In this document: positions 36,432 through 53,958 of the stretch, one piece after another
Layout of the letters: every line of letters begins with the position of its first letter
How positions within the stretch are numbered: position 1 is the first letter of the stretch
Assembly: GCA_035529075.1 (NCBI GenBank)
Contig: DATKXK010000005.1
Span: 68,981 to 132,980 of the forward strand
DNA length: 64,000 nucleotides
Origin: Acidobacteriota bacterium
GTDB lineage: Bacteria > Zixibacteria > MSB-5A5 > GN15 > FEB-12
Direction of reading: 5' to 3'
Position numbers and translations under genes: made by a program
Notes under the pieces: model-generated
Database searches by the model: none
What the model was told of the DNA's origin: nothing
The model's input: only the letters and a program-made list of their open reading frames with translations

Positions 36432-36686
36432 TTACTTCAGCAGCACCATCTTCTTCGTCTGGACAAAATCTCCCGCCTCGAGCCGGTAAAGGTAGACGCC
36501 GCTGGCGACATGGCTCGCGTCCCACGCAACGGTGTGAACGCCCGCCTCGAGCCGTCCGTCGACAAGGGTCGCTACCTGCTGCCCGAGCGTGTTGTAGACC
36601 CGTAACCTGACCTCGCTCGCAACGGGAAGGCCGAACGAAACGTTGGTGGTCGGGTTGAACGGGTTGGGGTGGTTCTGTTCCAGCGC
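36432..36686 (-). other. T9SS-type (Por secretion) C-terminal sorting domain of the metalloprotease
   Basis: 84-aa tail ALEQNHPNPFNPTTNVSFGLP...VYNTLGQQVATLVDG...ASGVYLYRLEAGDFVQTKKMVLLK matches the canonical type A CTD pattern. Confidence 0.8.
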
Positions 36687-39308
36687 GAACGTCGTCGGCA
36701 GTTGCCGATCTTCGCCCGCGCCGGACGGGTGAAGGGTAAGGTCGTAATTGTTGGTGTCCACCACCACCACTTCCGTCAGTGTGAAATCACCCCTGACGCG
36801 GATGACCTCGTAACTGCCGGCCGGCACGCGACGTGACCCTTTGCGGTCAAAGAGGCCGACCGTGACCGTTTCCTCAGACCGCCACACTGCCATCGCTACC
36901 CCGTCCTCGATCAGGTTGACCGGCGCTGCATCGGAGTTCCCCACCAGTTCGAGCTGTAGGGCGCGCAGGTTATACGGCGTACTGAGCGAGACAGTGGTCA
37001 CGCCGTCGTTGAAACTGAGACTGATCTCCACATCGGCCGCCAGCCGCTCGGCCGCCGGCTTCGGGTACATACCGCCGCAGTTGGCACATGGTTCAGGGCC
37101 GCTCGAGTACAGGTAATCGATCAGGTAACACAGATCGCTGACGTTGACCTTGGTGTCACAGTTGACGTCTCCGGAAATCCACGGCACGGGCGCCGGACCG
37201 CCGGAGTAAAGGTAGTCGTGCAGGTACTGCTCGTCCATCGAATCGACAAAACCGCTGTAGTCGACGTCGCCGCAGATGCCCTCGACGATGACCTCCTGGG
37301 TTTCGACGTTTTGACCCCACGGGTAGTGAGCCGTGCAAGTGATGTAGTATGTGCCCCAGTCAGTGTAAGCGTGTACGGGAGCTAACGAAGTATCGGCCGG
37401 AGTGCCATCTCCGAAATCCCACACCAGGAAGTCCCAGGGGTACGTGTCAAGGACTTGCCAGGTCACCGGATCAAGGTTCACATGTGCCGGGTAGTGTGTG
37501 CCATACTGATCTACGCATAGTATGTCCCCGTCCTTCATGAACACTAACGTGGCGTGCGGGCCGAGCCAGTGATCAGCATAAGCGCTGCAGATTGTTCCCG
37601 CGTTTGGCGTGCTGTCTGACAAATCGCCGTTGTCATCATCGGCCAGAAGGAGTGACCGCACCGCCTGTGCCGGTGTTGATATGTCATACGCACTCGAGTA
37701 GAAAACGAGGCTGTCGGTATAGCCGGAACCAAGTGCGGATCGAATCTGCCACCACGAGCCGGACTGCGTACCGCCCAGTTTGTGGTGGTCCGTTTGCACT
37801 CCGCACCAGTTCGGCACGTAGTAGCTATAGTCAAAAACAGGGGTAGTGTTCCGCAGATCAGAAGCGAAATAGTCGGCTTGCCCTTCGTTCCACCAGGTGG
37901 GTAGCGAGCCAAAACGCAAAAGGATGCTGTGATATGCGACCTGATGAGCCATCTCATGGTAGATGACATAGGTGTTGTACCCGCTGTAGGTGTCAATTCC
38001 TATTTCACCGGGAACAAAGTAGCCGGCCCAGCCACCGGTGAGATGTGCTTTTACGGCTACTCTTTCAAAGGCAAGGTCCTCTCCCAGCCAGTCGGCGTAC
38101 CAGGTGTGCATCTTTTTGAGGTGGTAGGCTATGTTCAGGTCTTTATAGTACTCCGGGTGGTCCAGCAGAAGCTGCGTCTCAGTCCAGTCAAAATCGAGAG
38201 TAAAGGAAAGGCTATCCACTATGTTAAATGTATCGGAAACGGCAAACGGTCGGACAAAGTTACCACTGCCGTCGTCCACGAGCGTTAGGCACACGTCATT
38301 GCCCATAAAGTACTTGAAATAGTACTCGTCAACGCCGACTTTACTGGTATAGTGGTAGTAGCCTGTATCATTCGAGAACAACTCCCCCGTCTCCGTAAAC
38401 GAGCCCCCCAGACTGCCGAGTGCCGCTAGAGGAGGTACGCCTGGTGTGCCTGGTTCGTATCCGACCCGATAGGAAGCGGCTGCAAAAGAACCGAACGTGA
38501 ATGGATCAGACTCGTCCATTTCCTTCCACGCACCGGATATATGACCATCAATGTCACCGTTGAATCGCAGAAGTACATCCTGCTGCTTCACTATCTCGCC
38601 CGATCCTGCATCCACGTAGGCCAAATGTGCCCCGATCGGCTCACCCGTGTTGACCAGAAACCGGTATGTCAGATGTACTTTTCCGTCCGCGGCTTCGGTA
38701 TAGGCAATGTCTTCAAACTGCACACGCTCCGGCCGGTATGAACGGAACTCGCTCTCAATTGCCTGTGTTGCTTGGTCTCTTGTCCACAGTATGTGAGGCT
38801 GCACAACGCTGAGGTCGAGCAACTCGACGGTTAGGAAGCTGAGCCTGCCCCGTGCATCAAGCACGCAGTGGATGCCGGCGTTTTCGCCGCAATATCCGTC
38901 CCTCGTCTGGGAAAAGTCTACCCGGGTCAGTTCCCCGAAACTGATAACGGTCGGCTCGTTGAGGTTCCAGCGTTCAAAGTCAATAAAGCTCGAGACCAGT
39001 GTTTGTACGGCGTTTCCTCTATCCGATGAATCACCTGTGAGTTCGATGGGCTTTCCGGTTGCCGTAAAGGAAATGTGCCGAGATGGATTTCTCTTGACGG
39101 TCCACCCGTCCAGGCCTCTCTCGAGCGCCTTCTCAAGCTCGCATTGAATTTCTCCACGGTACTCGGTTAGACCCGGTGAGATCAGCCCCATGGCCTCGGG
39201 CTCGCCGGTTGAAGCGGACTGGTCGGCCGGGTAATAGGCAGACACCTGAGCGCAAAGAAGACCCAGGACAATCAGCATTGCCAACAGTGTTCGATGTGTT
39301 TGTGACAT
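36432..39308 (-). CDS. Secreted HExxH zinc metalloprotease with PKD domain, dockerin-like pair and T9SS C-terminal sorting domain
   Basis: Signal peptide. VIYHEMAHQVAYH (HExxH), WDFGDGTPADTS (PKD), GDVDYSGFVD...GDVNCDTKVNVSDLCYLIDYLYS (dockerin-like). C-terminus is LEQNHPNPFNP...GVYLYRLEAGDFVQTKKMVLLK. Confidence 0.85.
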   Translation of the reverse strand: MSQTHRTLLAMLIVLGLLCAQVSAYYPADQSASTGEPEAMGLISPGLTEYRGEIQCELEKALERGLDGWTVKRNPSRHISFTATGKPIELTGDSSDRGNAVQTLVSSFIDFERWNLNEPTVISFGELTRVDFSQTRDGYCGENAGIHCVLDARGRLSFLTVELLDLSVVQPHILWTRDQATQAIESEFRSYRPERVQFEDIAYTEAADGKVHLTYRFLVNTGEPIGAHLAYVDAGSGEIVKQQDVLLRFNGDIDGHISGAWKEMDESDPFTFGSFAAASYRVGYEPGTPGVPPLAALGSLGGSFTETGELFSNDTGYYHYTSKVGVDEYYFKYFMGNDVCLTLVDDGSGNFVRPFAVSDTFNIVDSLSFTLDFDWTETQLLLDHPEYYKDLNIAYHLKKMHTWYADWLGEDLAFERVAVKAHLTGGWAGYFVPGEIGIDTYSGYNTYVIYHEMAHQVAYHSILLRFGSLPTWWNEGQADYFASDLRNTTPVFDYSYYVPNWCGVQTDHHKLGGTQSGSWWQIRSALGSGYTDSLVFYSSAYDISTPAQAVRSLLLADDDNGDLSDSTPNAGTICSAYADHWLGPHATLVFMKDGDILCVDQYGTHYPAHVNLDPVTWQVLDTYPWDFLVWDFGDGTPADTSLAPVHAYTDWGTYYITCTAHYPWGQNVETQEVIVEGICGDVDYSGFVDSMDEQYLHDYLYSGGPAPVPWISGDVNCDTKVNVSDLCYLIDYLYSSGPEPCANCGGMYPKPAAERLAADVEISLSFNDGVTTVSLSTPYNLRALQLELVGNSDAAPVNLIEDGVAMAVWRSEETVTVGLFDRKGSRRVPAGSYEVIRVRGDFTLTEVVVVDTNNYDLTLHPSGAGEDRQLPTTFALEQNHPNPFNPTTNVSFGLPVASEVRLRVYNTLGQQVATLVDGRLEAGVHTVAWDASHVASGVYLYRLEAGDFVQTKKMVLLK

Positions 39309-39488
39309 AATGCCTCCCTTGGGCCTGCCGCCGCCGCATCATGAATGCCAGAAACAGCAAAGCCCGTGTGTACGCAGACCCTTCTTGTGTTACTTACCGC
39401 GCGGTAGTTAGCCACACTCTTTATTTGGCGGGAGCCGGTATTCTTACAGCACCCCTGAGAGGTAATTCCGTTTTGCGGCCCGTGATGA

Positions 39489-39518
39489 TTGACAAACCTG
39501 TACGTTGAGCACTATTTT
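39489..39518 (+). promoter_or_regulatory. Candidate promoter of the ECF sigma operon
   Basis: TTGACA-18 nt-TATTTT, ending 8 nt before the ATG at 39527 (nearly leaderless). Motif match only. Confidence 0.25.
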
Positions 39519-39526
39519 AGCGGCAG

Positions 39527-40090
39527 ATGTCTCAGCCCGCTGACAGCCGGCGCACCCTGGATGAACTCCTCGACAAGGCGAGACAGGGCGACAAATCCGC
39601 GGAAGACCAATTACTTCGATACCTGCGTGTTAGATTCGTTCTGCTTGCCAAAAGAAGAATAGGGGAGGAGTACGCGGAGGATCTGGCCCAGGAGGCCTGC
39701 GTCACCGTCTTGCAGAAGTACCGGGACGTGCCGCCTGCGGGCGCGTTTGAGCCCTGGGCATATGGCGTGCTGCGAAACAAGATAGGCAACTATCTGCAAA
39801 GCAGCGCCGTGCGAAGGGAAACGGACCTCCGCAACGGACGGATGAACGGCCTCGTCGGCCGGCCGTCGGTCGCCTCCGACCCGGTCCTGAAGCTCAGGCT
39901 TCTGGATTGTATCAGAAAGATCGTGAAGCAGCACCCGCGGTACGCGAGAGTTCTCAACCTCGTTTACCAGGGCTACAGCACCACGGAGATTTGCCGCCGG
40001 CTGAAGGTCAGCCCCGGCCACTGCTATGTTCTGCTGAACCGGGGTCGAAAGATGCTGAGCAAATGCCTGGAAGCAGAGGGGAACAAATGA
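39527..40090 (+). CDS. ECF-type RNA polymerase sigma-70 family factor
   Basis: Region 2-like DLAQEACVTVLQKY..PWAYGVLRNK. Region 4 HTH GYSTTEICRRLKVSPGHCYVLLNRGRKML. 187 aa. Confidence 0.9.
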   Translation: MSQPADSRRTLDELLDKARQGDKSAEDQLLRYLRVRFVLLAKRRIGEEYAEDLAQEACVTVLQKYRDVPPAGAFEPWAYGVLRNKIGNYLQSSAVRRETDLRNGRMNGLVGRPSVASDPVLKLRLLDCIRKIVKQHPRYARVLNLVYQGYSTTEICRRLKVSPGHCYVLLNRGRKMLSKCLEAEGNK

Positions 40091-40776
40091 CTGCTGATAA
40101 GTGCACAGATCCTGAGGCCGGAGCCCTTGTGCATGCATGGGAACTGGGCGCGCTGCCGGACGAGGATGCGGAACGCTTTGAAATCCACCTGCTGCGCTGT
40201 CCGAGCTGCTTCGCAACGGTACAAAGATTCGAACGGCAGGCGACGCTGCTGCGCGAGGACGCCGATATACGCAGCCAGGTTCAGAGCGCCGTCGTCGGAG
40301 AAACGGGGCAGGCATCCGTTGCCCGTAGGCTCCGGGACTACCTGTGGCCCGGCACGCCGCTGGTGTTCAGGCCGGCGCTGGCGCTGGTGGTAATCATGCT
40401 GCTGATCTACCCGGCCTACCGCGGGATACAGCGTCTGGCCGGCGGCGACATCGAGGAAGTCCAGATGATCCACCTCTTCCCGTCGCGCGCCGCTTCGGAT
40501 GCCGTGTTCCGGGCGGGTCCGGGCACGGACGGTGTCATTTCGTTCGTCTTTCGCGGTGCCGTCCCGGGCCAGAGCTACCGGGTGACAGTGGCAATGGAAG
40601 ACGGTGCGGTCCTGTGGCGGGACAACTCGTATGCCTCTTTCGATGAATATGAGACCGGTCGGTTGCTGCTGCCTGCTTCCCTCATGCAGCCGGGGCGATA
40701 CGAAGTGCGAATAACCGATCCGGACGGCTCGCCGCCGGCCAACGAGCAGACATACACGTTCACAATAGAGCCGTGA
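40087..40776 (+). CDS. zf-HC2 anti-sigma factor, single-pass, with ~120-aa extracytoplasmic domain
   Basis: ATGA overlap with the sigma stop. MTADKCTDPEAGALVHAWELGALPDEDAERFEIHLLRCPSCF (H-x3-C-x2-C). TM segment LVFRPALALVVIMLLIYPAY. The track ORF start at 39907 overlaps sigma and is rejected. Confidence 0.8.
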   Translation: MTADKCTDPEAGALVHAWELGALPDEDAERFEIHLLRCPSCFATVQRFERQATLLREDADIRSQVQSAVVGETGQASVARRLRDYLWPGTPLVFRPALALVVIMLLIYPAYRGIQRLAGGDIEEVQMIHLFPSRAASDAVFRAGPGTDGVISFVFRGAVPGQSYRVTVAMEDGAVLWRDNSYASFDEYETGRLLLPASLMQPGRYEVRITDPDGSPPANEQTYTFTIEP

Positions 40777-40840
40777 CCACGAGGGCACAGAGCGGCTGGT
40801 AATCATCACGCACTACGCCGACGGTAGATGGAAAGGCATC

Positions 40841-43800
40841 ATGGCAATGAAAATTATTCCGAGCCTGCTGCTGTCGGCCGTTGCCTGGCTTTGCGTAGGC
40901 GACCTGCCAACGGCGCAGGAGTCATCCGACGGCAACCTGAAGGCGGCCGAGGCAGGCCGACTTCTCGTCCGGGCTGACTCGCTCAAGGAAAACCGACAAC
41001 TCGATTCCGCCCTTGTCGTGTATCAGTCGGCCGTTGCACAGGCGAGGGAGGCCGGGGCGGAGAATGACTCGACCGTCGTTCAATGTCTGGACGGTCTGGC
41101 GAGCTGCTATTATAAACTGTCGGAATACGAGAGGTGCGATTCGCTGTATCGCCAAGCCTGCTCGATTCGGGTGGTCGTTTTCGGACCGTCCAGCCTCGAA
41201 GTCGCTCGTTCCCTTTTCGACGTGGGCGAGGTTGAGGCAGTACTGGGGCGGTATGAAGAGTCAGTCTCCCTGTTAAACCAGTCTCTGGAACTTCAGGAAC
41301 TTCACCTGGGCCCGTCCCACATCGAACTCGAACCGTGCCTCCGGGAACTCGGCAACGCGCTTTCGATGCTTGGCCGCCTGCCGGAGGCGGAAACGGCGCT
41401 TAAGCGGGCTATTGCCATCGTGGAACAGACAAGGGGGCCTGACGATGTGGCGGTTGTTTCGAATCTTAACTACCTCGGCAACCTCTACGTCAAGCAGTCT
41501 CGTTTTGTCGAAGCAGAACCACTCTTCAAGCGAGCGATCACGCTGGTGGAGAAACAATTGGGCCGTGACCACCCGAAACTGTCCACGGTCCGTTTTTATC
41601 TCGCCGACCTGTACATGTCGCAGCATCGCGATAATGAAGCGGAGCCGCTGCTCAAACAGGCCCTGGCTGTTCAGGAGAGAACGTACGGGCCGGAGGATGA
41701 CCAGGTGGCGCCGTATCTGGCCAGCCTGGCGGTCGTCTACTGGAGGCAGGGACGGTTTGAGGAAGCGGTGCCGCACATGAAACGTGCCCAGCGAATATTC
41801 GAGAGCGTGTATGGTCCCGACCATCCCGTCGTGGCCAGCGTGCTGAACAACCTCGGTACTATTCTGATCGGTCAGGGCAACCTTGCCGAGGCCGAGCGCA
41901 GCTTCGAACGTGCCTTGGAGATTTGGAGCAAAGTGGCTCACGACGTTGCCCGGCGAATTACGACCCTGCACAATCTTGCGGTCGTGTATTTCATGCAGGA
42001 CAAGTACGATCAGGCGGAAGACCTGTGGGCGCAGGTCCTCGCTCACCGCACGGAACTCCTGGGGGCCGATCATCCGGAGGTCGGCATGGTCCGGCTCAGC
42101 CTGGGACGGCTGTTTGAGGAACAGGGCCGGTACGAGGACGCCGAGCGCGAGTTCGGGCAAGCCCGGACGATCTTTGCCGAGCAATGGGGACCCGGCAGCC
42201 TGGGCGTCTCGGCATGCCTGCACGGTCTGAGCGACGTTTATGCGGCCACCGGCCGGTACGCTCAGGCCGAAGAATTCACGGCCGACGCGTTGTCGCTGGA
42301 GAGTAAGGAACTCCGCACCGGTCACCCCTCGCTCAATCGTGGGTTGCATCTGATGGCGGTGATTCATGGATCCCTGGGAGAGTACGAGTCGAGCCGTGCG
42401 AACATGTGCGAATTGCTTGACGCCAGGCACCGCTTTATCGCCCATGTTTTCTCGTACGCCTCGGAAGAGCAAAAGCTCAGATACGTCGATCAGCAGCCGC
42501 TTGTCGATGAGGTGATGCTTTCGCTGGCTCTCATCGATGGTTCCGAAGAGACCCGATCCGCCGCGCTTGAAATGCTGGTGAAAGGCAAAGGTGTCATCAT
42601 TGATGCCATGTCCGCCGAAAATGCGATCATTTCCTGTAAGCCGGGCAGCGAACTGGGGCAGACGGCAGAGCAGTATTCGTTTCTGTGCAAGATGATATCC
42701 ACGCTGGCCATGTCCGGACGCGAGAGTATGGTGTCGCAGCAGACGGCGGACCGGCTGAAGACTCTGTCTCAGGCCAGGGATTCGATCGAAGCGGAGCTCA
42801 GTTTGAGCTGTCTTGAATTCAAGGACGAACTGGACCGGGGTAATTTCTCGCTGCAGAACGTACTCGAGGCGCTGCCCCCGGGCAGCGTCTACCTGGACTA
42901 TGCGCGATTTCGCCCGGTTGACTTCTCGAAGGTCGGCTCATATCAACAAAAACTGGGATCGTCCCGCTATCTCGCCTTTACGCTCGATCACGACGGCCAT
43001 AGCACCCTGCACGACCTCGGCGATGCGAACCAGATCGACAGCTTGGTCAGGAGTTGCCGCCGGCTGATCTACAATGCAGGGGCCGAGTTGCATTCGCCGC
43101 TGGCGGACGTCGCCGAAGAACGGCTTCGAGAAGTCACCGACCGGCTGTATGAAAGGTTGTTTCTCCCGCTGGTCGAGGAGCTCGGTGGCAGGGAAAGCCT
43201 TTTTGTCTCGACTGACGGCCTGCTTACTCTTCTGCCCTTCGAAATCCTGTCGTGTCCGGACCGGTCGTTTCTGATAGAGAACTACCGAATATGCTATCTT
43301 TCGTCAGGACGGGATATCCTTCGATTCGTGGAAGGTCCGGTGTTGGCCGGTGAGGCCGCTGTTTTTGCCGACCCGGATTTTGATAACGCCGGTGTCTCCG
43401 CCGCCAACGTCGCCGAGGTGACGCAGTTCGGCTCGGATTCGGTGTCGGGCACGCAATGGTATGCCGCGCGCGCAGGCGACTGCCCGGCTGTCGGCTTTGA
43501 CCGTCTGGCCCGAAGCCGCTCCGAGGCGGCGTCGATTGTCGGCATCCTCAGGCAAGCGGGGAAGGTGAGGGTCGGCGAATACTACGGTACCGAGGCTCTG
43601 GAAGATGTCTTGAAATCCATGGCTGCTCCGCCGCGCGTTCTGCATCTGGCGACGCACGGCTTTTTTTGCCCGATGTCGGACACGTCCGAATCTCTCGTTG
43701 CCGGCAACCCGTTGCTTCGGTGCGGCCTGGCCTTCGCCGGAGCCAATAGGGCCGGCTTTCCTGCCGGGGACAACGCTCCGGGGGCGGAAGACGGTATCCT

Positions 43801-44149
43801 GACCGGCCTGGAGGCCGCCGGCCTTGATCTGGTCGGAACGGAACTGGTGACCCTGGCCGCGTGCGAAACGGGCCTGGGCGAACTGGTGGATGGAGAGGGC
43901 GTCTTCGGTCTGCGCCGGGCTTTCCAGCGTGCCGGGGCGCAGACTATCGTGATGAGCCTGTGGAAAGTCCCCGATCAGGAAACAGCCGAATTGATGGACG
44001 GTTTCTACCGACGGTGGTGCGGCGGGGCATCAAAGCTGGATGCGCTCCGCGAGTCAGCTCTTGACGTCCTTAACCGGTCACGGACCGAACGAGGACGCAG
44101 TCATCCGTTGCTCTGGGGCGGATTTATCCTGGCCGGCAACCCGTACTGA
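40841..44149 (+). CDS. Exported TPR-repeat / CHAT-domain (caspase-fold) protease
   Basis: N-terminal signal-like MAMKIIPSLLLSAVAWLCVGDLPTAQE. About 10 TPR_12-type units (LNNLGxxYxxQGRYxEAEPLxxRAL). CHAT His/Cys dyad in LHLATHGFF and LAACETGLG. Confidence 0.9.
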   Translation: MAMKIIPSLLLSAVAWLCVGDLPTAQESSDGNLKAAEAGRLLVRADSLKENRQLDSALVVYQSAVAQAREAGAENDSTVVQCLDGLASCYYKLSEYERCDSLYRQACSIRVVVFGPSSLEVARSLFDVGEVEAVLGRYEESVSLLNQSLELQELHLGPSHIELEPCLRELGNALSMLGRLPEAETALKRAIAIVEQTRGPDDVAVVSNLNYLGNLYVKQSRFVEAEPLFKRAITLVEKQLGRDHPKLSTVRFYLADLYMSQHRDNEAEPLLKQALAVQERTYGPEDDQVAPYLASLAVVYWRQGRFEEAVPHMKRAQRIFESVYGPDHPVVASVLNNLGTILIGQGNLAEAERSFERALEIWSKVAHDVARRITTLHNLAVVYFMQDKYDQAEDLWAQVLAHRTELLGADHPEVGMVRLSLGRLFEEQGRYEDAEREFGQARTIFAEQWGPGSLGVSACLHGLSDVYAATGRYAQAEEFTADALSLESKELRTGHPSLNRGLHLMAVIHGSLGEYESSRANMCELLDARHRFIAHVFSYASEEQKLRYVDQQPLVDEVMLSLALIDGSEETRSAALEMLVKGKGVIIDAMSAENAIISCKPGSELGQTAEQYSFLCKMISTLAMSGRESMVSQQTADRLKTLSQARDSIEAELSLSCLEFKDELDRGNFSLQNVLEALPPGSVYLDYARFRPVDFSKVGSYQQKLGSSRYLAFTLDHDGHSTLHDLGDANQIDSLVRSCRRLIYNAGAELHSPLADVAEERLREVTDRLYERLFLPLVEELGGRESLFVSTDGLLTLLPFEILSCPDRSFLIENYRICYLSSGRDILRFVEGPVLAGEAAVFADPDFDNAGVSAANVAEVTQFGSDSVSGTQWYAARAGDCPAVGFDRLARSRSEAASIVGILRQAGKVRVGEYYGTEALEDVLKSMAAPPRVLHLATHGFFCPMSDTSESLVAGNPLLRCGLAFAGANRAGFPAGDNAPGAEDGILTGLEAAGLDLVGTELVTLAACETGLGELVDGEGVFGLRRAFQRAGAQTIVMSLWKVPDQETAELMDGFYRRWCGGASKLDALRESALDVLNRSRTERGRSHPLLWGGFILAGNPY

Positions 44150-44315
44150 GATCGGCACTTTCGGGCCGGATGGTTGCAGAGATGTGCCGTGACAGGCCGG
44201 ACTTCGCCTGAGGACTTTCGGGTTCGCCGGGGGCGCATCAAGTGGAAGGCGGTGCACCGGGAGCCGCCGGCAGGCCTTCAAACTGCGGGGTCATCCTCTC
44301 GACAAACCCGTCGGA
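43988..44315. repeat. Direct repeat copy A (~325 bp): CHAT 3' end + spacer + diverged apbE 3' fragment
   Basis: 43988-44248 matches 47088-47348 with 2 mismatches (44021, 44143). 44249-44315 matches 47349-47415 at only ~80%. The offset is exactly 3100 bp. Confidence 0.92.
44238..44315 (-). pseudogene. Remnant of an apbE 3' end (last ~25 codons)
   Basis: Minus strand reads (S)DGFVERMTPQFEGLPAAPGAPPST*, compared with the intact apbE end PDGFVERMTPQFESLLAAPAVPSST*. There is no upstream coding continuation. Confidence 0.75.
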
Positions 44316-44559: not shown

Positions 44560-46860
44560 CTACGGAATTCTGCTGCCTTTCGCAGCAGGCGGCACAAGTG
44601 ATCGCCACGCCGGAAATTCGTCATGGGCGCTGTTGTTGGTCAACTTCCGCCGGTTAGTGCCGTCCACGTTCATTATGTAGATTTCCCCGTCGCCGTCCTG
44701 CCACGATGCAAATACGATCTGCTTGCCGTCGGCAGACCAATCCGGGCAGTTCTCGCCGGCATAAGTGGTCGACAGTTTCTGCAGGCCGCTGCCGTCGGCA
44801 TTGATGATATAGATCCCCCGGAAACCTGCATGATCGGAACCAAAGACAATACGGGTGCCATCCGGCGACCAGTCCGGTTCGAAGCAGACGATATCCATCA
44901 ACTTATGCTCATCGCTGCCATCGGCATCCATTATGAAGGTGCCTTCATTGTCGTTGATGCGGGAGAAGACAATCTGACTACCGTCTGGTGACCATGCGGG
45001 AAAATCCTCGGAGCTGGAAGGGGTATCGGTCAGACGCTGCAGATTGGAGCCGTCTGCATGAATGACATAAATCTCGCCCTGGCCGTCGCGCCATGATGCG
45101 AACACTATGTGCACGCCATCGGGCGACCACTGAGGCCAGAAATCCATAGCGGTATGGGATGTCAGTTGTTGCACGCTGCTGCCGTCGGCATTCATGACGT
45201 AGATATCGGGGTTCCCGCCTCGGGTCGACACGAAGGCAATCCGTGAACCGTCGGGCGACCAGCTCGGCCCGGCGTCGTAGGCCGGATCGTCCGTCAGACG
45301 GCGTACGTGGCTGCCGTCGATCTTCATGAGGTAGATGTCCCCTGCACCGTCCCGTTCTGACGTGAAGGCAATCGTTGAGTCAACTGCGACCGGGCACGGC
45401 GGCAGCGGCTCATAGGTGATAAACAGATACTTGATCATCCGCGTCAGGTCCGAGATATCGACCACGCCGTCGGGCTCTGCCTCCGGGCCGATGTCGGCCT
45501 CGGCCAGGCAACAGATCGGTTGGCGAGAGATGAACAGGAAATCAATGAGGTTGGTCAGATCGCTGACATCGACTGTCTGATCGCTGTATTCGCACTCGCC
45601 CAGTAGCATGACATTGCCTATCGTGCCCTCACAGCAGCAGGCATCGCCGACATTATCGCTGTCGCCGTCCTCCTGAAGCGGGTTGTATACGAAGGGGCAG
45701 TTGTCGACGTCGGCACACAGACCGTCCCCGTCGACGTCGTTGTACGGATCCAGCGGGCAGTCGTCGCAGTCGTTGCCGATCCCATCACCGTCTGTATCCA
45801 CCTGGGCCGGGTTGTAAAGTACAGAACAGTTGTCAACCGGGCACGTGTTCTCGGCGTGACCGGGATCGCCGTAACCGTCGAGATCACCATCCGTACAGGA
45901 TCCGACCACAAAACCCTCGTTGGCATCGCTGGCCCCGGCTCCCGTCTGATAGGCACCGGCCACTACGAAGATCGTGTCTCCGATGACTGCCGCGTTGGTT
46001 CCGTGGCGCGGCGTGAGCATGGGCGTCAGCGGCTCCCAGGTATCGGTGCCGGGATCATACAACTCTACTTCCTCGTAGATGTCCGGAATCTCCCCGCCAA
46101 ACGTATACAGCTTTCCGCCAAGGGCCGCCGTCGAAAACGCGCTGCGCGGCGTCAGCATGTCTGCCAGTGTGTACCAGGTATCGCTGGCCGGCGAGTATGC
46201 TTCAGTCACCGGGACCAGCTCGAGAGACTCTCCCCAGTAGCCGATTCTCCCGCCCACTACGTAGATCAGGGAATCGATTACCGCTACTCCCGGGTGGTGA
46301 CGGGCCGTAGGCATGCTCGTGCCCGGAGACCAGCTATCCATCTGCGGATCATACACCTCGACCGAAGCCAGATCATCACCGTAGGTGTTGTTGCCGCCGA
46401 ATACGTAGATAAGACCATCGTAGGCCACAGCGCTGTGTTCACCCCGAGCCGTGGCCAGGGGGGCTCGAGGCGCCCAGCTATCGGTCGATGGCTCATAAGC
46501 CCAGACGGTGCTCGTAGCGATCCACGGCAGGCCGGCATTGCTGTAGCCACCGATCGCGTAAAGTACCCCGTCCACCACGGCCGTGGCACAGTGATGGCGG
46601 GCCTCGGGCAGCAGGGCCGCTGTCGACCAGGTATTGGCGGCTGGATCATACACATAGACACTGCCACTCACGACCAGGCTGGGGGTATACCCGCCCACAA
46701 CGTAGATGCGCCCGTCGAGCACGGCCGGCAGAACCTCCTGTCTGGCTTCCGGCAGCTCAGGACGTTCGAACCAGTAACCGGGCCCCTGGCCATAGGCAAA
46801 CCCGGCTAAGACATTCAACGCTATCAGGATGACGAGACAGACACGGGAACGGCGTTTCAT
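44560..46860 (-). CDS. Secreted mosaic protein: 6 Kelch repeats + TSP3-type Ca-binding repeats + dockerin-like pair + TolB-like (PD40) beta-propeller
   Basis: Signal peptide MKRRSRVCLVILIALNVLAGFAYG (ATG at 46860 preferred over 46917). Six units of PxARxxxxxAVxDGxIYVxGG. DTDGDGIGNDCDDCPLDPYNDVDGDGLCADVDNCP. DVSDLTNLIDFLF / DISDLTRMIKYLF. Repeated IAFxSxRDGxxDIYVMNADGSxxxxLT. Confidence 0.85.
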   Translation of the reverse strand: MKRRSRVCLVILIALNVLAGFAYGQGPGYWFERPELPEARQEVLPAVLDGRIYVVGGYTPSLVVSGSVYVYDPAANTWSTAALLPEARHHCATAVVDGVLYAIGGYSNAGLPWIATSTVWAYEPSTDSWAPRAPLATARGEHSAVAYDGLIYVFGGNNTYGDDLASVEVYDPQMDSWSPGTSMPTARHHPGVAVIDSLIYVVGGRIGYWGESLELVPVTEAYSPASDTWYTLADMLTPRSAFSTAALGGKLYTFGGEIPDIYEEVELYDPGTDTWEPLTPMLTPRHGTNAAVIGDTIFVVAGAYQTGAGASDANEGFVVGSCTDGDLDGYGDPGHAENTCPVDNCSVLYNPAQVDTDGDGIGNDCDDCPLDPYNDVDGDGLCADVDNCPFVYNPLQEDGDSDNVGDACCCEGTIGNVMLLGECEYSDQTVDVSDLTNLIDFLFISRQPICCLAEADIGPEAEPDGVVDISDLTRMIKYLFITYEPLPPCPVAVDSTIAFTSERDGAGDIYLMKIDGSHVRRLTDDPAYDAGPSWSPDGSRIAFVSTRGGNPDIYVMNADGSSVQQLTSHTAMDFWPQWSPDGVHIVFASWRDGQGEIYVIHADGSNLQRLTDTPSSSEDFPAWSPDGSQIVFSRINDNEGTFIMDADGSDEHKLMDIVCFEPDWSPDGTRIVFGSDHAGFRGIYIINADGSGLQKLSTTYAGENCPDWSADGKQIVFASWQDGDGEIYIMNVDGTNRRKLTNNSAHDEFPAWRSLVPPAAKGSRIP

Positions 46861-47087
46861 GACAATATCTCTTGAGTTAAAGGTCAAACCAGACGACCTC
46901 GCAAAGGACGACGGCAAAACTGGTATTTAATAGACGAATACCAACCGACATTGTTCAGCTATTCCAGCTGCAGCGTGCCTGTCCTGTAACTGCCGCTGCC
47001 TGCCCTAAAATGCTCCTTTTAGCCTTACTCTCTTACGAGCAGGATGAACTTCCCGGGCCCTTCTCTGCGCCCATCAGTTACTGCACT

Positions 47088-47249
47088 GAATTGATGGACG
47101 GTTTCTACCGACGGTGGTGCAGCGGGGCATCAAAGCTGGATGCGCTCCGCGAGTCAGCTCTTGACGTCCTTAACCGGTCACGGACCGAACGAGGACGCAG
47201 TCATCCGTTGCTCTGGGGCGGATTTATCCTGGCCGGCAACCCATACTGA
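47088..47249 (+). pseudogene. Orphan copy of the last 53 codons of the TPR-CHAT gene
   Basis: ELMDGFYRRWCSGASKLDALRESALDVLNRSRTERGRSHPLLWGGFILAGNPY* differs at one residue from the end of 40841-44149. The track ORF 47010-47249 merely adds unrelated upstream codons. Confidence 0.8.
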
Positions 47250-47415
47250 GATCGGCACTTTCGGGCCGGATGGTTGCAGAGATGTGCCGTGACAGGCCGG
47301 ACTTCGCCTGAGGACTTTCGGGTTCGCCGGGGGCGCATCAAGTGGAAGACGGCACAGCCGGAGCCGCAAGCAGGCTTTCAAACTGCGGGGTCATCCTTTC
47401 GACAAAGCCGTCCGG
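47088..47415. repeat. Direct repeat copy B (~325 bp): truncated CHAT 3' end + spacer + genuine apbE 3' end
   Basis: See copy A. Identical block structure, shifted by 3100 bp. Confidence 0.92.
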
Positions 47416-48414
47416 AGTTCTCACAACGAGTAACGCCGCCAGACCTTTGCCGAGCGCCAGCGCATAGCCGTCCGCCGGGCCCAGGATATTGATCGCCGTC
47501 GCCATCGCATCGGCGTACCAGCAGGAATCATGGATCACCGTCACCGAGGCCAGGCGGTGCCTTATCGGCTGTCCTGTCCTGGGATCGATGAGGTGTGAAT
47601 AGCGGACGCCGCCTGTCTCGAAGTAGTTTCGATAGTCTCCGGACGTTGCCATGGCGCAATTGACAAGAGACGCGACTTTCTGCACACCCGAATCCCCGTC
47701 GGGAGTCTCTATGCCGATCTGCCACACCTGATCCCTGTCGTTGCGACCCCGCGCTTTCATCTCCCCGCCGATCTCGACGAGATAGTCGGACAGGCCTGCC
47801 GAGTCAAGGTACCGGGCGATTTCGTCAACGCCGTAGCCCTTGGCGATTGCCGCCAGATCACAGTAGACCCCCGCGTTGTCCTTTTTCAAGGCAGGCGGAT
47901 CCAGCCGGACGGCGATCCTGGCGTACCCGGTGCGCGCCATGGCCCGGGTGATTTCTTCGGGTGTCGGTAGCCTGCGATCGGTCGTCGGGGGACCGAATCC
48001 CCAGAGGTTCACCAGCGGGCCAACCGTAATATCAAACGTACCACCCGTTTCCCGACTTACCCCCAGAGACTGTTCGATGATGCGTGCCGTGGCGGCCGAC
48101 ACGAGGAACCAGTCGGTTTTCTTCCGGTAGTTGAACCGCGAAATCTCCGAACTCTTCAGGTAGCAGGACATCTGAGCGTTGACGGCCTGCAACAGGCTGT
48201 CGATGCCCCGCCTGGCCAGTTCGATCTGCTCATGCGCAAGGTCGGCTGCGTGGCTGATTTTGACACTGTATACGGTCCCCATGGTTTCGCCGCGGATGAC
48301 AACCGGTCCGGCAGGGGCCGGGTTGTCCGAGCAGCCGGCAAGAAGCCCGGCGGCAACCAGCCATCCGGTCAGCCGCCGCCGCGCCCGGTCGGGATTCATC
48401 GCTCTGAACTTCAT
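47338..48414 (-). CDS. apbE: FAD:protein FMN transferase (flavin transferase ApbE), lipoprotein
   Basis: Lipobox LLAGC. GTFDITVGPLVNLWGFG, DLAAIAKGYGVD, AMATSGDYRNYF, YSHLIDPRTGQP. Confidence 0.92.
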   Translation of the reverse strand: MKFRAMNPDRARRRLTGWLVAAGLLAGCSDNPAPAGPVVIRGETMGTVYSVKISHAADLAHEQIELARRGIDSLLQAVNAQMSCYLKSSEISRFNYRKKTDWFLVSAATARIIEQSLGVSRETGGTFDITVGPLVNLWGFGPPTTDRRLPTPEEITRAMARTGYARIAVRLDPPALKKDNAGVYCDLAAIAKGYGVDEIARYLDSAGLSDYLVEIGGEMKARGRNDRDQVWQIGIETPDGDSGVQKVASLVNCAMATSGDYRNYFETGGVRYSHLIDPRTGQPIRHRLASVTVIHDSCWYADAMATAINILGPADGYALALGKGLAALLVVRTPDGFVERMTPQFESLLAAPAVPSST

Positions 48415-48548
48415 TATATCATTATAGTGGATCCTCTTCGGCCAGGCCAGTCGGCAGTGCCCGACATTCCGTTTTTCTTGAGCCGGGTAGGTCAGTCCCG
48501 GTGAGCCGGGCGGCCGTGATGACTGCCGGAGCTTGTGAAAAATATCTC

Positions 48549-48577
48549 TTGCGGCCGGATCATGATATTTTTATACT
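48549..48577 (+). promoter_or_regulatory. Candidate promoter of the cytochrome/Rnf operon (would give a ~175-nt structured leader)
   Basis: TTGCGG-17 nt-TATACT. Downstream lies the hairpin cggtgcc-cgtc-ggcaccg at ~48589-48606. Motif match only. Confidence 0.3.
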
Positions 48578-48753
48578 TTACGGGTGTCCGGTGCCCGTCG
48601 GCACCGCGCAGAATAAACCCTGCCGAGGGAGCAGGTCAGAGCGCTTGCTGAAAGTCGGTCGCATGAGTACCTGGTCGCCGGTCCGGTAGGTTTGAGTCAT
48701 GGGGACGCGAGGTACCGCCCGGTCTTGCTCGACCGTAGAAAAGAGGATGTAAC

Positions 48754-49227
48754 ATGCCGGAGAAGAAGAAAGATCAAGCGGACAGTTGGGAGGGCATGTT
48801 CTGGAAACCGCACAAGTATAATGAGCGGATCAACCTGAAATCCGGTTCGTATCTCCGTACCTTCTGCCCTCGCTGCGACGAAGAACTGACTGAAGGTAAC
48901 GTGATCCGGCTTGAGGTGATTAACCTCAACGATGAATCGGGGTGGATTGAGCTGAGCACGTACCTGAACGTTTTTGAGCGGAAGACCGATATCAAGCTGC
49001 CTGAGGATCAAGAAGTCAAGGATCTCCGTTGCCGTCACTGTCACCGTTCATTGGTCGTGGAGGGCCGGCGCTGTGGAACCTGCAATTCCCACGCGGCCGG
49101 CATTGTGGTCGGCGTCTCCAACACCAAGGTGCCTTTCCTGATTTGCACGCGCATAGGTTGTCACTGGCACGCTATTCTGCCCGATGACGAAGACCAGATA
49201 ATTCTCGATGACAGCCGTGAATGGTAA
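48754..49227 (+). CDS. Cytoplasmic 8-Cys (double zinc-ribbon-like) protein of unknown function, first gene of the Rnf-type operon
   Basis: 157 aa with no signal peptide. Cys pairs CPRC, CRHC, CGTC, CTRIGC. Its stop lies 1 nt before the cytochrome start. Confidence 0.6.
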   Translation: MPEKKKDQADSWEGMFWKPHKYNERINLKSGSYLRTFCPRCDEELTEGNVIRLEVINLNDESGWIELSTYLNVFERKTDIKLPEDQEVKDLRCRHCHRSLVVEGRRCGTCNSHAAGIVVGVSNTKVPFLICTRIGCHWHAILPDDEDQIILDDSREW

Positions 49228-49228
49228 T

Positions 49229-49840
49229 ATGCAGGCGCACAGAAAACCCACTTTCCTGATAATTCTTACCGTCGTGGCCGCCGTTGCGGCCGTGGGCGGC
49301 TACTGGGTGGGAGAGGAATCCTCGGACACCAGCCGATTCTTCCTGAGTAGCTCCGGCGGCGACGTGGTGTTCGAGCACGGGGCGCATACGGAAATGGCCG
49401 CGGGGTGTGAAAGCTGCCACCATGATCTCCTGCTGGCCGATTCACGGCAGCCGTGCAGCACTTGTCACGGCGACGACGTTGCGGCGGAGGATTTCGATCA
49501 TGATGACCTCAAGACCATCTCGGCGCACAGTTGCGAGACATGCCACGAGGTCAACGACCAGGCCGAGGCAGGGTCATGTCGCAGTTGCCACCCGTCGGCT
49601 CAGGACGCGGAACCGCAAACGGTGGCCTGCGGGCAGTGCCACGACGGCTACTCGGCCGATTTGATGACCCACGACGAGATGCAGGAAATCGAGGGGCACG
49701 CGTGCGAAGGGTGCCACGTCATTGAGGCGGTCAGTACCGTGTACCACCGTCAGTGTGAGGGCTGTCACCTTGCCGAAAGCCCCGAGAAGTTTGCCACCGA
49801 AACCGGAGAAAGCCAGTGTCAATCGTGTCACCTGAGGTGA
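49229..49840 (+). CDS. Membrane-anchored/exported octahaem c-type cytochrome
   Basis: N-terminal MQAHRKPTFLIILTVVAAVAAVGGYWV. Eight CxxCH motifs in ~150 aa: CESCH, CSTCH, CETCH, CRSCH, CGQCH, CEGCH, CEGCH, CQSCH. ATG at 49229 is preferred to the track start at 49208, which overlaps the previous gene. Confidence 0.88.
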   Translation: MQAHRKPTFLIILTVVAAVAAVGGYWVGEESSDTSRFFLSSSGGDVVFEHGAHTEMAAGCESCHHDLLLADSRQPCSTCHGDDVAAEDFDHDDLKTISAHSCETCHEVNDQAEAGSCRSCHPSAQDAEPQTVACGQCHDGYSADLMTHDEMQEIEGHACEGCHVIEAVSTVYHRQCEGCHLAESPEKFATETGESQCQSCHLR

Positions 49841-49856
49841 ATTTCAGCTTGCGGGT

Positions 49857-51167
49857 TTGCCCATGAATTCCATACGGACACTTTTCAGGACCCTTGGCCA
49901 CATCGGGGATTGCGCCTCACATGAGGAGAAGATTTCCGCAATCGCCGACCCGCCGTACGTCTGCATCCCGCTGGAGTATCCGGGCCAGATCCTGTACAAG
50001 CCCCTGGTGCAGGCGGGTGATACGGTGCGCAGGAACCAGATCATCGGCCGGTCCGGGCAGGGTAATTGTGTCCACGCGTCGGTAAGCGGAACAGTGAAGG
50101 AGATCAGGCCCGTCTGGACTGCGCGAAGCTACAACGTGCCCTCGGTCGTGATTGAGCGAAACGGCGGCGCCCCGCTGTCGGTGGGCGAAGTCTTTGAGCA
50201 GTACGGCGTGCGGTTTGCCTCGGCGTCCCGGATACAGAAAATGAAGGCCCTGGGGGTTGTCTCGCCGTGGACTCTGCCGGGCAAGTTCCACCGTGAAGAG
50301 GAGGTGGAGGAGTTCCCCGAGGTCAGACAGATCATTATCAAGGGAAAAAACGAAGAACCCAGTATTTTCACGTTCGAACTGCTGCTTGAGCAGGAATCTG
50401 AGAAAGTGACTCGGGGGATTCAGCAACTGACCAGCATCGCCCCCAATGCTCTGATCTGGCTGACCGTGCCGAGGCGCCTGGCTGCCTGGGCGCGTGAGAC
50501 TTTCGGCGACTCCGTCAAAGTTGCGCCCCTTGGGGACGGTTACAAGGACCGTCTGGAGCGGCTGCTTGTCCCGCGCCTGACCGGGATCACGATAGCCAAC
50601 ACCGCCCCGTACCGGCAGGAAGGGATTGCCGTCATATCGGTCGAGTACCTCCTGGCCATGGTCGACGCGCTTGAAGGCCGCAGCCCGTTCACGCACAAGC
50701 ACCTGACTGTCGCCGGGCATAACGTCTCCAGACCCGTTACGGTCAAGTTCCCTATAGGCACACCCATCCGAACACTCCTGGAGAGCCAGCAGCTTCACGA
50801 CAAGTCGTTCGCACGCCTGCTGGTCGGGGGGCCGATGAAGGGAATCGCGCAGTTTAGTGACGAAACTCCCCTCACCAAGTCCTGTCACGGTCTTTACGTG
50901 ATATCAGCGGATCAATTGCCGCTGGAGGTGAACCTTACGTGCATAAACTGCGGCCGGTGTACGCGGGCGTGCCCGCTTAACCTGCAGGTGCACCTGATCG
51001 GCCGCTACGTCGAATATAACCTGCTGCTTGAGGCCAGGGGATTTCACCCGGAAGCCTGCAATGAGTGCGGGTTGTGCGCCTATGTCTGTCCGGCTCACAG
51101 GCCGCTGGTACAACTTATCACTATGTGTAATCAGTACGATGAGCACGCCGATGGTCAGAACGTATGA
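49857..51167 (+). CDS. rnfC: RnfC-like subunit retaining two [4Fe-4S] motifs but lacking the Gly-rich NADH/FMN-binding motifs
   Basis: RnfC_N pattern (VCIPLEYPGQILYKPLVQAGDTVRRNQIIG..VHASVSGTVKEI), LLVGGPMKG, CINCGRCTRACP and CNECGLCAYVCP. Where RsxC/RnfC has G(L/V)GGAGFPT and INxAECEPY, this protein has VVSPWTLPGKF and IKGKNEEPS. Confidence 0.82.
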   Translation: MPMNSIRTLFRTLGHIGDCASHEEKISAIADPPYVCIPLEYPGQILYKPLVQAGDTVRRNQIIGRSGQGNCVHASVSGTVKEIRPVWTARSYNVPSVVIERNGGAPLSVGEVFEQYGVRFASASRIQKMKALGVVSPWTLPGKFHREEEVEEFPEVRQIIIKGKNEEPSIFTFELLLEQESEKVTRGIQQLTSIAPNALIWLTVPRRLAAWARETFGDSVKVAPLGDGYKDRLERLLVPRLTGITIANTAPYRQEGIAVISVEYLLAMVDALEGRSPFTHKHLTVAGHNVSRPVTVKFPIGTPIRTLLESQQLHDKSFARLLVGGPMKGIAQFSDETPLTKSCHGLYVISADQLPLEVNLTCINCGRCTRACPLNLQVHLIGRYVEYNLLLEARGFHPEACNECGLCAYVCPAHRPLVQLITMCNQYDEHADGQNV

Positions 51168-52125
51168 GAAACTGAACGTAGCTTCCAGCCCTCACTGGCG
51201 GGATGGAAGCGCCCTGGATTTGACTTACAAGCTGTGGCTGCTGGCCCTGGCGCCGGCCATGATCGTGAGCCTGCTGATGTTCGGTTGGCAGGCGTTACGG
51301 GTTCTCGGCCTGGCCGTGGCCTGTTCCGTATTCCTGGATGCGCTCGTCAACCGGATAAAGCCCTCCAAGGACTTTACGACCAATTGGAGCAGCGTTACGT
51401 TCGGCGTGATCCTCGCCCTGATGATGCCGTATGACGCCGCCTGGTGGCTGATTCTGGTGGGTTGCCTGATCATGATTGTGGTGGGCAAAAAGCTTTTCGG
51501 CGGCGTGGGAGCGTACCCCGTGCACCCGGTCCTGCTCAGTCTGGCCATGCTGCATGTATCCTGGCCGCACCGCTTCGACTTCACCGCTTCCATGGTTTCA
51601 CTGGATCTCGGTGTCAAGATGGTCGAGCCGATGCGTCTCGTCAAAACGCTGGGCGCGGGCGCCGAGGCTGCATATCGCTGGCAGGATCTCCTGCTGGGCA
51701 AACAGGTGGCCGGCATCGGTAGCGGGCTCGTCCTGTACCTGCTTATAGGCGGCCTGCTCCTGATTCTTTTCCGCCAGATTCCGTGGCACATCCCGGTCGC
51801 CTTTATTGTCGGTAACCTGGTGATGGGGGAGGTTCTGCACCTGGCGGATCCGGTTCAGTTCGCCACACCGCTCTTCTACCTTCTGTCCGGCGGCACTGTT
51901 TTCGCCGCTTTTTTCCTGGCGACGGAGTACACGACTTCGCCCGTGAACCCGGTTCCGATGTTGTTATACGGGTTCCTGGGTGGGGCTTTGCTGATAGTAA
52001 TTCGCGCGTTTTCGAACTACACTGACGGCGTGGTGTTTACGATCCTGCTGATCAACCTGTGCAATCCGCTTCTCGATCGCATCACGCCCAGGGTATACGG
52101 CATAGAGGCGGCTCAGCATGCGTGA
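51139..52125 (+). CDS. rnfD: RnfD/NqrB-family membrane subunit (divergent at the FMN-attachment site)
   Basis: VASSPHW near the N-terminus, KKLFGGVGAYPVHPVLLSLAML, YLLSGGTVFAAFFLATE, NYTDGVVFTILLINLCNPLLD. ATG at 51139 is chosen; the track start at 51028 lies deep inside rnfC. Confidence 0.86.
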   Translation: MSTPMVRTYEKLNVASSPHWRDGSALDLTYKLWLLALAPAMIVSLLMFGWQALRVLGLAVACSVFLDALVNRIKPSKDFTTNWSSVTFGVILALMMPYDAAWWLILVGCLIMIVVGKKLFGGVGAYPVHPVLLSLAMLHVSWPHRFDFTASMVSLDLGVKMVEPMRLVKTLGAGAEAAYRWQDLLLGKQVAGIGSGLVLYLLIGGLLLILFRQIPWHIPVAFIVGNLVMGEVLHLADPVQFATPLFYLLSGGTVFAAFFLATEYTTSPVNPVPMLLYGFLGGALLIVIRAFSNYTDGVVFTILLINLCNPLLDRITPRVYGIEAAQHA

Positions 52126-52717: not shown

Positions 52718-52746
52718 ACTGCCCTGACGGGGTGTGAGAAGCGAAT

Positions 52747-53358: not shown

Positions 53359-53367
53359 GAGGTACTG

Positions 53368-53943: not shown

Positions 53944-53958
53944 GATAGAAAGTAGGGT

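Follow-up and report, generated by a model that had tools for sequence, protein, structure and literature searches.

The closest known system to the one described here is the DdvS/DdvA pair of Myxococcus xanthus. DdvA is a zinc-binding anti-sigma (ZAS) factor with one transmembrane helix and a periplasmic TPR-CHAT part of ~900 residues that carries an intact catalytic dyad (PMC11506125, PMC6061681). This periplasmic domain blocks the protease RseP sterically, and its deletion exposes DdvA to RseP; the authors propose that a signal induces CHAT to cleave the linker as a site-1 step, a cleavage that they could not observe (PMC11506125). DdvA-like fused proteins have been reported only from Myxococcota and one Comamonas species (PMC11506125). 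Canonical regulated intramembrane proteolysis (RIP) is established for RseA/DegS/RseP and RsiW/PrsW/RasP (summarised in PMC11506125). Another TPR-CHAT protein, Csx29 of the Craspase system, is proposed to relieve the inhibition of a sigma factor of the extracytoplasmic function (ECF) type, CASP-sigma/RpoE, via Csx30 (PMC10028731). Here we analysed a 64-kb stretch of bacterial DNA (contig DATKXK010000005.1; hereafter the window) in which an ECF sigma factor, an anti-sigma factor and a TPR-CHAT protein are encoded by neighbouring genes. An initial annotation of this DNA had set the trio beside the Craspase module and had missed DdvS/DdvA. Our literature searches for CHAT proteins with a sigma factor and a signal peptide, or for CHAT proteins in Zixibacteria, found nothing, and the main text of the 2021 ECF reclassification makes no mention of CHAT. 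The fused form is known from Myxococcus; the split form is not.

The three genes are laid out as follows.

39527 to 40090, plus strand: ECF (group 4) sigma factor, 187 amino acids (aa) (Pfam and NCBIfam)
40087 to 40776, plus strand: class-I zinc anti-sigma factor, single-pass, 229 aa (zf-HC2 and a PDB profile match)
40841 to 44149, plus strand: TPR-CHAT caspase-fold protein, 1102 aa, predicted protease (Pfam, AlphaFold2 and Foldseek)

The sigma stop codon and the anti-sigma start codon share the ATGA at 40087-40090, and the anti-sigma stop (40776) is separated from the CHAT start (40841) by a 64-nt gap in which scanning revealed no terminator-like site. The initial annotation had reported three consecutive plus-strand genes with this overlap and this spacing; open reading frames (ORFs) were found exactly there, and its observation of the trio was confirmed in every detail. 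The sigma factor contains Sigma70_r2 (aa 40-92), Sigma70_r4_2 (aa 137-177) and Sigma70_ECF domains in Pfam and scored 59.9 bits against NCBIfam TIGR02937 (cutoff 42.9). All specific NCBIfam ECF models were far below their cutoffs, which places it in the general ECF superfamily only. The trio's neighbours in the window encode a protein of the type secreted as cargo by the type IX secretion system (T9SS), metallophosphoesterases, peptidases, a Kelch/PD40 protein, ApbE and an Rnf complex.

Related contigs were retrieved with an alignment-based scan for the anti-sigma factor (a single-protein scan matched none), and all their ORFs were scored with family profiles; a locus with enough downstream DNA was counted as informative. 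We found that sigma, anti-sigma and one to three TPR-CHAT genes are adjacent in 15/15 informative distinct loci, which come from Zixibacteria, Glassbacteria and related metagenome genomes and have flanking genes that are unrelated between loci. The genes are co-directional in 14 of the 15, with CHAT convergent in the remaining locus (L016). A gene matching the sigma-family profile occurred in every related locus, and CHAT was in all of them an ORF separate from the anti-sigma gene. All eight downstream proteins tested with Pfam were TPR-CHAT proteins whose CHAT domain ends at the C-terminus. The reverse test gave the same picture: three CHAT homologues (45-48% identity), picked only for their long contigs, were each preceded by the same sigma and anti-sigma families (3/3). 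A contig lacking the CHAT gene (L018) was rejected as an exception, because a run of N inside its anti-sigma gene makes it uninformative. The synteny on which the initial annotation had let the idea of a unit depend is thus present, and the three genes are a conserved, unannotated unit.

The family is large. A word-indexed protein search returned 24 close relatives of the anti-sigma factor, of ~228 aa, and an exhaustive profile search gave 319 representatives of 50%-identity clusters at E<=1e-30 and 663 at E<=1e-10; nearly all of the best 150 listed matches were full-length, at ~220-240 aa. Named relatives are called 'hypothetical' or 'zf-HC2 domain-containing' and stem from metagenome-assembled genomes labelled Zixibacteria, Glassbacteria, Ignavibacteriales or Acidobacteriota. 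Matches from metagenomes lay mostly on contigs too short for synteny.

Several loci depart from the simple arrangement. Two or three tandem TPR-CHAT paralogues follow one sigma/anti-sigma pair in L001 (8752-16687), L007 (8753-16041) and L008 (8925-16127). L008, which is identical to L026, also holds an 87-aa fragment of the anti-sigma C-terminal domain between two CHAT genes (12759-13019), so an anti-sigma/CHAT pair was apparently duplicated there as a block. A distant exported TPR-CHAT protein, P0104 (34% identity; L034 1-8817), has no sigma or anti-sigma neighbours and is preceded by another large TPR protein and a 1355-aa protein without a Pfam match, which indicates that the association marks a clade and not every exported TPR-CHAT protein. 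On the other side of the operon, the gene divergent from sigma encodes a large secreted protein in seven of the 15 loci (the window, 36432-39308 on the minus strand; L004 283-1986; L006 5445-7229; L008 2112-5643; L009 527-5353; L019 1283-3619; L021 1658-4543), L008 and L009 having it as the first large gene past one or two short ORFs. These proteins contain dockerin, FG-GAP, PKD, FlgD_ig and/or T9SS C-terminal sorting domains, with S8 peptidases in L008 and L009. Their position may have been inherited within a single sub-lineage, or it may mark a link in regulation.

Next, we considered the TPR-CHAT protein itself. Pfam recognized eight TPR_12 stretches and a CHAT domain at aa 765-1100 (E=8e-65), and the overall order is signal-like residues 1-27, a TPR array to ~530, a helical linker and CHAT. 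The caspase-type His and Cys noted in the initial annotation, His939 (HLATHG) and Cys1008 (AACETG), proved to be invariant across 91 aligned homologues, and in the 11 operon-linked CHAT members HLATHG and (S/A)ACE(T/S)G are conserved without exception. An AlphaFold2 model built with the 91 homologues (predicted local distance difference test, pLDDT, 86; predicted template-modelling score, pTM, 0.82) has an N-terminal helix at 2-17, disorder at 21-27, a long TPR solenoid, a helical linker and an alpha/beta domain bearing the dyad. Foldseek ranked human separase first for this model (E~1e-14), followed by DdvA (8rot_A, E=5e-13, 13% identity, no better than the separase match) and then Csx29/Craspase TPR-CHAT (template-modelling (TM) score 0.45-0.57 on the target, 12-13% identity); identities to the three lie at 10-13% throughout. 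The helical TPR array, the C-terminal CHAT domain and the His/Cys dyad of the class formed by separase, Csx29 and DdvA are all present. These features suggest that the protein is a cysteine protease, an activity predicted from fold and dyad. The TPR part is only 23-36% identical between family members and variable in length, whereas the C-terminal 600 aa are 43-66% identical, a contrast that would fit a conserved catalytic module bearing a ligand-binding module that varies.

The protein is probably exported. Its N-terminus, MAMKIIPSLLLSAVAWLCVGDLPTAQ, has one Lys followed by a 16-aa hydrophobic core, in line with the signal-like start described in the initial annotation, and N-termini across the clade combine a basic residue with a hydrophobic core 12-20 residues long, and many of them have an A-x-A-like end. 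Of 108 CHAT proteins from the database and the loci, 77 pass as signal-like by hydropathy; the failures are truncated sequences, mis-called starts or distant relatives. After correction of start codons L002, L008a, L012, L013, L014, L016 and L017 were clearly signal-like and L004 weakly so, so that essentially all operon-linked CHAT proteins have a signal-like N-terminus. Neither a lipobox nor a T9SS C-terminal domain was present in the CHAT proteins. With such an N-terminus the protein would share a compartment with the C-terminal domain of the anti-sigma factor.

The anti-sigma factor is, by its sequence, an ordinary class-I zinc anti-sigma. It has a zf-HC2 domain at aa 13-41 (Pfam, E=1.8e-6) with the H-x3-C-x2-C motif and fourth ligand that define a class I ZAS domain; among 162 family members the zinc ligands H34, C38 and C41 are 99% conserved and C6 96%. 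The sole significant PDB match of its profile is the ZAS protein RslA (3hug, E=0.0014). In the AlphaFold2 model three N-terminal helices are followed by a long helix (92-119) and an eight-strand beta-sandwich (125-228, pLDDT >90). The model indicates that the helix at ~92-119 is the transmembrane segment and that the beta-sandwich lies outside the cytoplasm; its boundaries give an external domain of ~105-115 aa. The initial annotation had described the same architecture of cytoplasmic zinc finger, one transmembrane helix and external domain, which holds apart from the length of ~120 aa it gave to the last. Within the external domain, conservation stands at 99% for R134 and at 85-98% for L130, F153, Y164, F185, D186, G203, Y205, Y223 and F225 (162 members). 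The fold is generic Ig-like, with weak matches to phage baseplate, PAD Ig-like and macroglobulin domains and to EhICP2. A short ORF just upstream of the sigma gene in L013 (5073-5354, minus strand), identical in L028 (4073-4354, minus strand), matches positions 111-180 of the anti-sigma profile (E=1e-11), which indicates that the periplasmic beta-sandwich also exists outside the anti-sigma factor.

If the exported protein acts on or with the anti-sigma factor, their divergence should be linked. Mantel tests on the pairwise divergence of the parts in 14 loci gave a raw r of 0.75 between the anti-sigma periplasmic domain and the C-terminal 600 aa of CHAT, and a partial correlation of 0.59 with sigma controlled (p=2e-4). 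For the anti-sigma cytoplasmic domain the corresponding values were 0.50 and 0.14 (p=0.20). Sigma against the cytoplasmic domain, the positive control, gave 0.76 and, with CHAT controlled, 0.67 (p=2e-4), and sigma against the CHAT C-terminal 600 aa a raw r of 0.56. An interaction between the two periplasmic parts would be expected to leave such a pattern, which supports the interaction without proving it. The same partial r of 0.67, together with the translational coupling through ATGA, indirectly supports a putative role of the anti-sigma factor in binding and inhibiting its cognate sigma.

Expression of the operon appears to involve two kinds of promoter, and the elements found in and upstream of the sigma gene are the following.

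39424 to 39447, plus strand: bipartite motif TTTGG-N13-TCTTAC, distal candidate ECF promoter (position weight matrix (PWM) and consensus match)
39489 to 39518, plus strand: sigma-70-type promoter TTGACA-18-TATTTT, proximal (consensus scan)
39629 to 39655, minus strand: the motif in antisense within the sigma ORF, a degenerate copy over codons V-R-F...A-K-R (PWM matches in related loci)

The distal motif has the family consensus TRTTTG-N14-TMTTACAG and occurs in 12/18 loci, 77-240 nt before the sigma start, as scored with leave-one-out PWMs (among them the window, L001, L003, L007, L008, L013-L017 and L019, with L004 at just 10 bits). It is the single match in the 64-kb window, where 0.12 would be expected, and the sole PWM hit above 12 bits. 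These observations make it a candidate for the promoter read by the ECF sigma factor itself, which would imply autoregulation. The initial annotation had envisaged an ECF target promoter upstream of position 39527 and further ones elsewhere; the first part found its candidate here. The second did not, as the window holds no second copy, and no regulon member beyond the operon can therefore be named.

A TTGACA-N17-TATAAT-like pair occurs at the place of the proximal promoter in 11 other loci. In the window its -10 element ends 8 nt before the sigma ATG and no Shine-Dalgarno sequence is present, so that a sigma mRNA made from it would probably be leaderless or nearly so; the sigma leaders of other loci measure 30-60 nt. 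This promoter sits between two convergent copies of the bipartite motif, the second of which, on the minus strand and ending 99 nt past the sigma start, was found at 11-25 bits in 13/18 loci (for example L003 7540-7570, L008 7536-7566, L012 5535-5565, L015 5539-5569, L019 4590-4620 and L021 4808-4838, all minus strand). The Arg codon at this site is AGA in 17/17 loci, though AGA makes up 9-47% of Arg codons in those genes, and the Val codon is GTA in 13/15. Such fixed codons suggest selection on the DNA sequence itself. The window's own copy, GTT AGA, is below the PWM threshold. It is possible that the antisense copy is a brake promoter, a promoter for the divergent upstream gene or one of a pair of operators for another regulator. 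Two other readings of the motif pair were rejected. An invertible-promoter repeat does not fit, as the half-site spacer is not common within a locus, and neither does an RNA stem, as there are no compensatory changes (for instance, upstream TATTAC against internal TCTTAC in L001, L003 and L007).

Together, the analyses of gene order, domain structure and co-variation lead us to the following model. The sigma factor would be held at the membrane by the single-pass zinc anti-sigma factor, whose beta-sandwich would sit in the periplasm directly against the membrane, and the third gene would supply a Sec-exported TPR-CHAT cysteine protease that acts on or with this domain. CHAT would be switched on by a signal in the periplasm, most probably a protein that binds to the variable TPR array; it would then clip the external domain of the anti-sigma factor in trans, as a site-1 protease. 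An RseP-type site-2 protease, whose part is assumed by analogy, and cytoplasmic proteases would remove the rest, and the freed sigma factor would transcribe its targets, among them the operon that encodes it, which it would read from the distal bipartite promoter. A role of CHAT as site-1 protease is plausible, and for a periplasmic CHAT domain it follows a published precedent that is itself a hypothesis (DdvA, PMC11506125). As specified in full, we hold this mechanism tentatively, at somewhat short of an even chance, whereas it is much more probable that the three proteins form one signalling module.

Several points weigh against site-1 cleavage by CHAT. The main obstacle is geometric. Site-1 proteases usually cut long flexible juxtamembrane segments, and the anti-sigma factor lacks one: in the model the membrane helix is joined to the folded beta-sandwich by only ~5 residues, which would force the protease to cut a loop of the folded domain itself. 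The loop at 131-138, with R134, can be named as a cut position by way of speculation. A separase-like ExxR motif, EYETGR (aa 187-192), was rejected as the cleavage site, only F185, D186 and G191 being conserved among the 162 members. Furthermore, DdvA dyad mutants behaved like wild type (PMC11506125), and a catalytic cysteine in the periplasm could be subject to oxidation. Signal peptides were assessed by hydropathy and by eye, not with SignalP. The partial Mantel tests, with 14 loci, are not phylogenetically corrected, and lineage-specific rates of periplasmic proteins could yield the same correlation. Finally, co-transcription fits CHAT as an output of the sigma factor equally well.

This last point leads to the strongest alternative, in which the anti-sigma factor senses alone or with other factors and the sigma factor raises the level of an exported protease that acts on other proteins, periplasmic or foreign, in quality control, defence or a self-destruction like that of bacterial caspases. 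CHAT is the last gene of the operon, the sole candidate sigma-dependent motif in the 64-kb window drives that operon, and the CHAT paralogues, one to three in tandem and divergent in their TPR arrays, resemble a diversified set of effectors; the short juxtamembrane linker, too, speaks for this view and not for a classical site-1 cut. However, it leaves unexplained why the periplasmic and not the cytoplasmic domain of the anti-sigma factor tracks the divergence of CHAT, and why the same three parts are fused in DdvA. The strong sigma-70-type promoter also drives the operon, so that expression of CHAT would not depend on the ECF sigma factor only. We consider this alternative rather unlikely, though one to be taken seriously.

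Alternatively, CHAT could be a partner of the anti-sigma factor without cutting it. Here the beta-sandwich would tether or inhibit CHAT, or CHAT would shield the anti-sigma factor, until a signal dissociates the pair; securin on separase, the chagasin-type Ig-like inhibitors and the shielding of RseA by RseB provide models. Such a pairing would account for co-variation that is specific to the shared compartment, and the compact Ig-like beta-sandwich with conserved surface positions (R134, F185, D186, G203 and Y205) would suit it, as would the steric block of RseP by the periplasmic domain of DdvA. The fold match to EhICP2, an Ig-like inhibitor of cysteine proteases (E=3e-4, TM-score 0.44-0.49), points the same way, but it is weak and generic, with phage baseplate, PAD and macroglobulin domains scoring alike. 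The invariant dyad, moreover, implies that proteolysis matters. On balance this explanation is unlikely.

A degenerate or relocated accessory module of type III-E Craspase, left without its CRISPR effector, would also combine a TPR-CHAT protein with an ECF-type sigma factor and an inhibitor whose proteolysis is proposed to lift inhibition, as in Csx29/Csx30/CASP-sigma (PMC10028731), and Csx29 is among the structural matches given above. In agreement with the initial annotation, which had reported no gRAMP/Cas7-11, cas gene or CRISPR array, scans of the 64-kb window gave no CRISPR-like array, no Rfam match, no cas domain among the 38 ORFs scanned and no PADLOC match except to a generic TPR model, with no cyclic-oligonucleotide-based antiphage signalling system (CBASS); nor were there cas genes among the called neighbours in the 15 related loci. 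The Craspase module is cytoplasmic, is activated by RNA via Cas7-11 and has a soluble inhibitor, Csx30 (PMC10028731). By contrast, the trio has no CRISPR-Cas, its CHAT protein is predicted to be exported, and its inhibitor is a membrane ZAS protein unrelated to Csx30, no Csx30 chain being retrieved from the PDB by the anti-sigma profile at E<=1. An adjacent gRAMP or array, a Csx30-like substrate and a cytoplasmic TPR-CHAT protein are thus all absent, the compartment being judged by heuristics, and Csx29 is no nearer to the CHAT protein than separase or DdvA are. A relationship to the Craspase RpoE module, of which the initial annotation had suggested a counterpart, is not supported, and descent from such a module is very improbable. 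That the genes are adjacent by chance or mere inheritance is still harder to believe: many TPR-CHAT proteins exist (1045 homologues at E<=1e-10 in a set of 8000 candidates) and P0104 lacks the pair, but adjacency has persisted from both sides while the components diverged to ~50% identity between unrelated flanks, spacing is tight and the components co-vary.

Among the remaining features of the window, a direct repeat touches the CHAT gene.

43988 to 44315, plus strand: copy 1, ~300-325 nt, the last 54 CHAT codons and 3' flank (repeat comparison)
47088 to 47415, plus strand: copy 2, 97% identical to copy 1, overlapping the 3' end of ApbE and a CHAT C-terminus remnant ORF (47010-47249)

The two copies start exactly 3100 nt apart and bracket the Kelch/PD40 gene (44560-46917, minus strand). 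The remnant ORF matches positions 239-289 of the Pfam CHAT profile (E=1e-7), and the duplicated segment takes in the 3' end of the convergent ApbE gene. Three independent assemblies (L022-L024) have the same repeat structure, which indicates that the repeat is real; a further contig, L025, ends ~30 nt into copy 1. It looks as if the Kelch segment was integrated by homologous recombination or as if copy 2 is the relic of a second CHAT gene. Beyond it, 47338-56058 holds ApbE on the minus strand, then, on the plus strand, genes for a multihaem cytochrome c and for an Rnf-type complex, the latter made up of RnfC, D, G, E and A-like genes together with a fused Fe-S/pyridine-nucleotide oxidoreductase. 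These are ordinary genes of energy metabolism, and nothing visible ties them to the trio. Elsewhere, a 598-aa ORF at 18081-19877 (minus strand), without a Pfam or PADLOC match, contains ~12 tandem units of 117 nt (39 aa) at 67% identity (18203-19582).

The broadest reading of our results is a widespread, undescribed ECF pathway of uncultured Zixibacteria-like bacteria, in which an operon-encoded periplasmic caspase-fold site-1 protease senses its signal in trans, independently of DdvA, and which carries convergent copies of its own promoter, one of them kept in the sigma coding sequence through fixed synonymous codons. Taken with all these parts, it is doubtful. The link between ECF sigma factors and exported caspase-fold proteins would nevertheless reach beyond Myxococcota, to a large unannotated family of hundreds of 50%-identity clusters, and the anti-sigma family gains a candidate promoter motif with which a regulon can be read in complete genomes.

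Compared with known systems, the trio resembles separase in having helical repeats ahead of a caspase-like domain that bears a His/Cys dyad. Separase, in contrast, is a eukaryotic protein, 10-12% identical to the CHAT protein, and it acts in the nucleus and cytoplasm under regulation by securin and phosphorylation. The trio resembles canonical RIP in its single-pass anti-sigma factor, with a domain for sigma binding in the cytoplasm and an external domain; removal of the latter triggers canonical RIP and would do so in the trio. Canonical site-1 proteases are serine or metalloproteases, and to our knowledge none is encoded in the operon of its sigma factor; here a predicted caspase-fold cysteine protease is.

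The likeness to DdvS/DdvA goes furthest, as it extends to an ECF sigma factor, a zinc anti-sigma domain at the N-terminus, a single transmembrane helix and, in the periplasm, a TPR array that leads into CHAT with its dyad, and also to the proposed logic of CHAT as site-1 protease ahead of RseP. At the level of sequence the two are far apart. Kinesin-light-chain TPR matches dominated when the full-length CHAT protein was searched against PDB sequences; a profile of the C-terminal 600 aa, used in its place, retrieved only DdvA (8rot_B, E=0.33), over 83 residues around the catalytic Cys. PDB sequence searches with the sigma factor or the ZAS domain retrieved no DdvS/DdvA chain. On account of this marginal similarity we treat the trio as a split, very distantly related analogue of DdvS/DdvA and not as a member of its family. 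There is neither a fusion nor an adjacent CBASS/CRISPR-Cas island: the anti-sigma factor ends with a stop codon after aa 229, the TPR-CHAT protein is a separate polypeptide with its own signal-like sequence, and whereas DdvS/DdvA has a CBASS/CRISPR regulon, none was found in the window. The anti-sigma factor of the trio also has a small beta-sandwich that DdvA lacks, and the hosts are Zixibacteria-like uncultured bacteria instead of Myxococcota. Any cleavage would occur in trans between two proteins, in place of autoproteolysis within a dimer. DdvA, the only periplasmic CHAT/anti-sigma case studied so far, joins enzyme and substrate in one polypeptide and is an obligate dimer, so that the step is difficult to study by itself; in the trio the putative enzyme and substrate are separate, and binding and cleavage are therefore directly testable with two proteins. 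If the trio and DdvA arose independently, two separate unions of an ECF system with a periplasmic TPR-CHAT protein would strengthen the functional inference for both.

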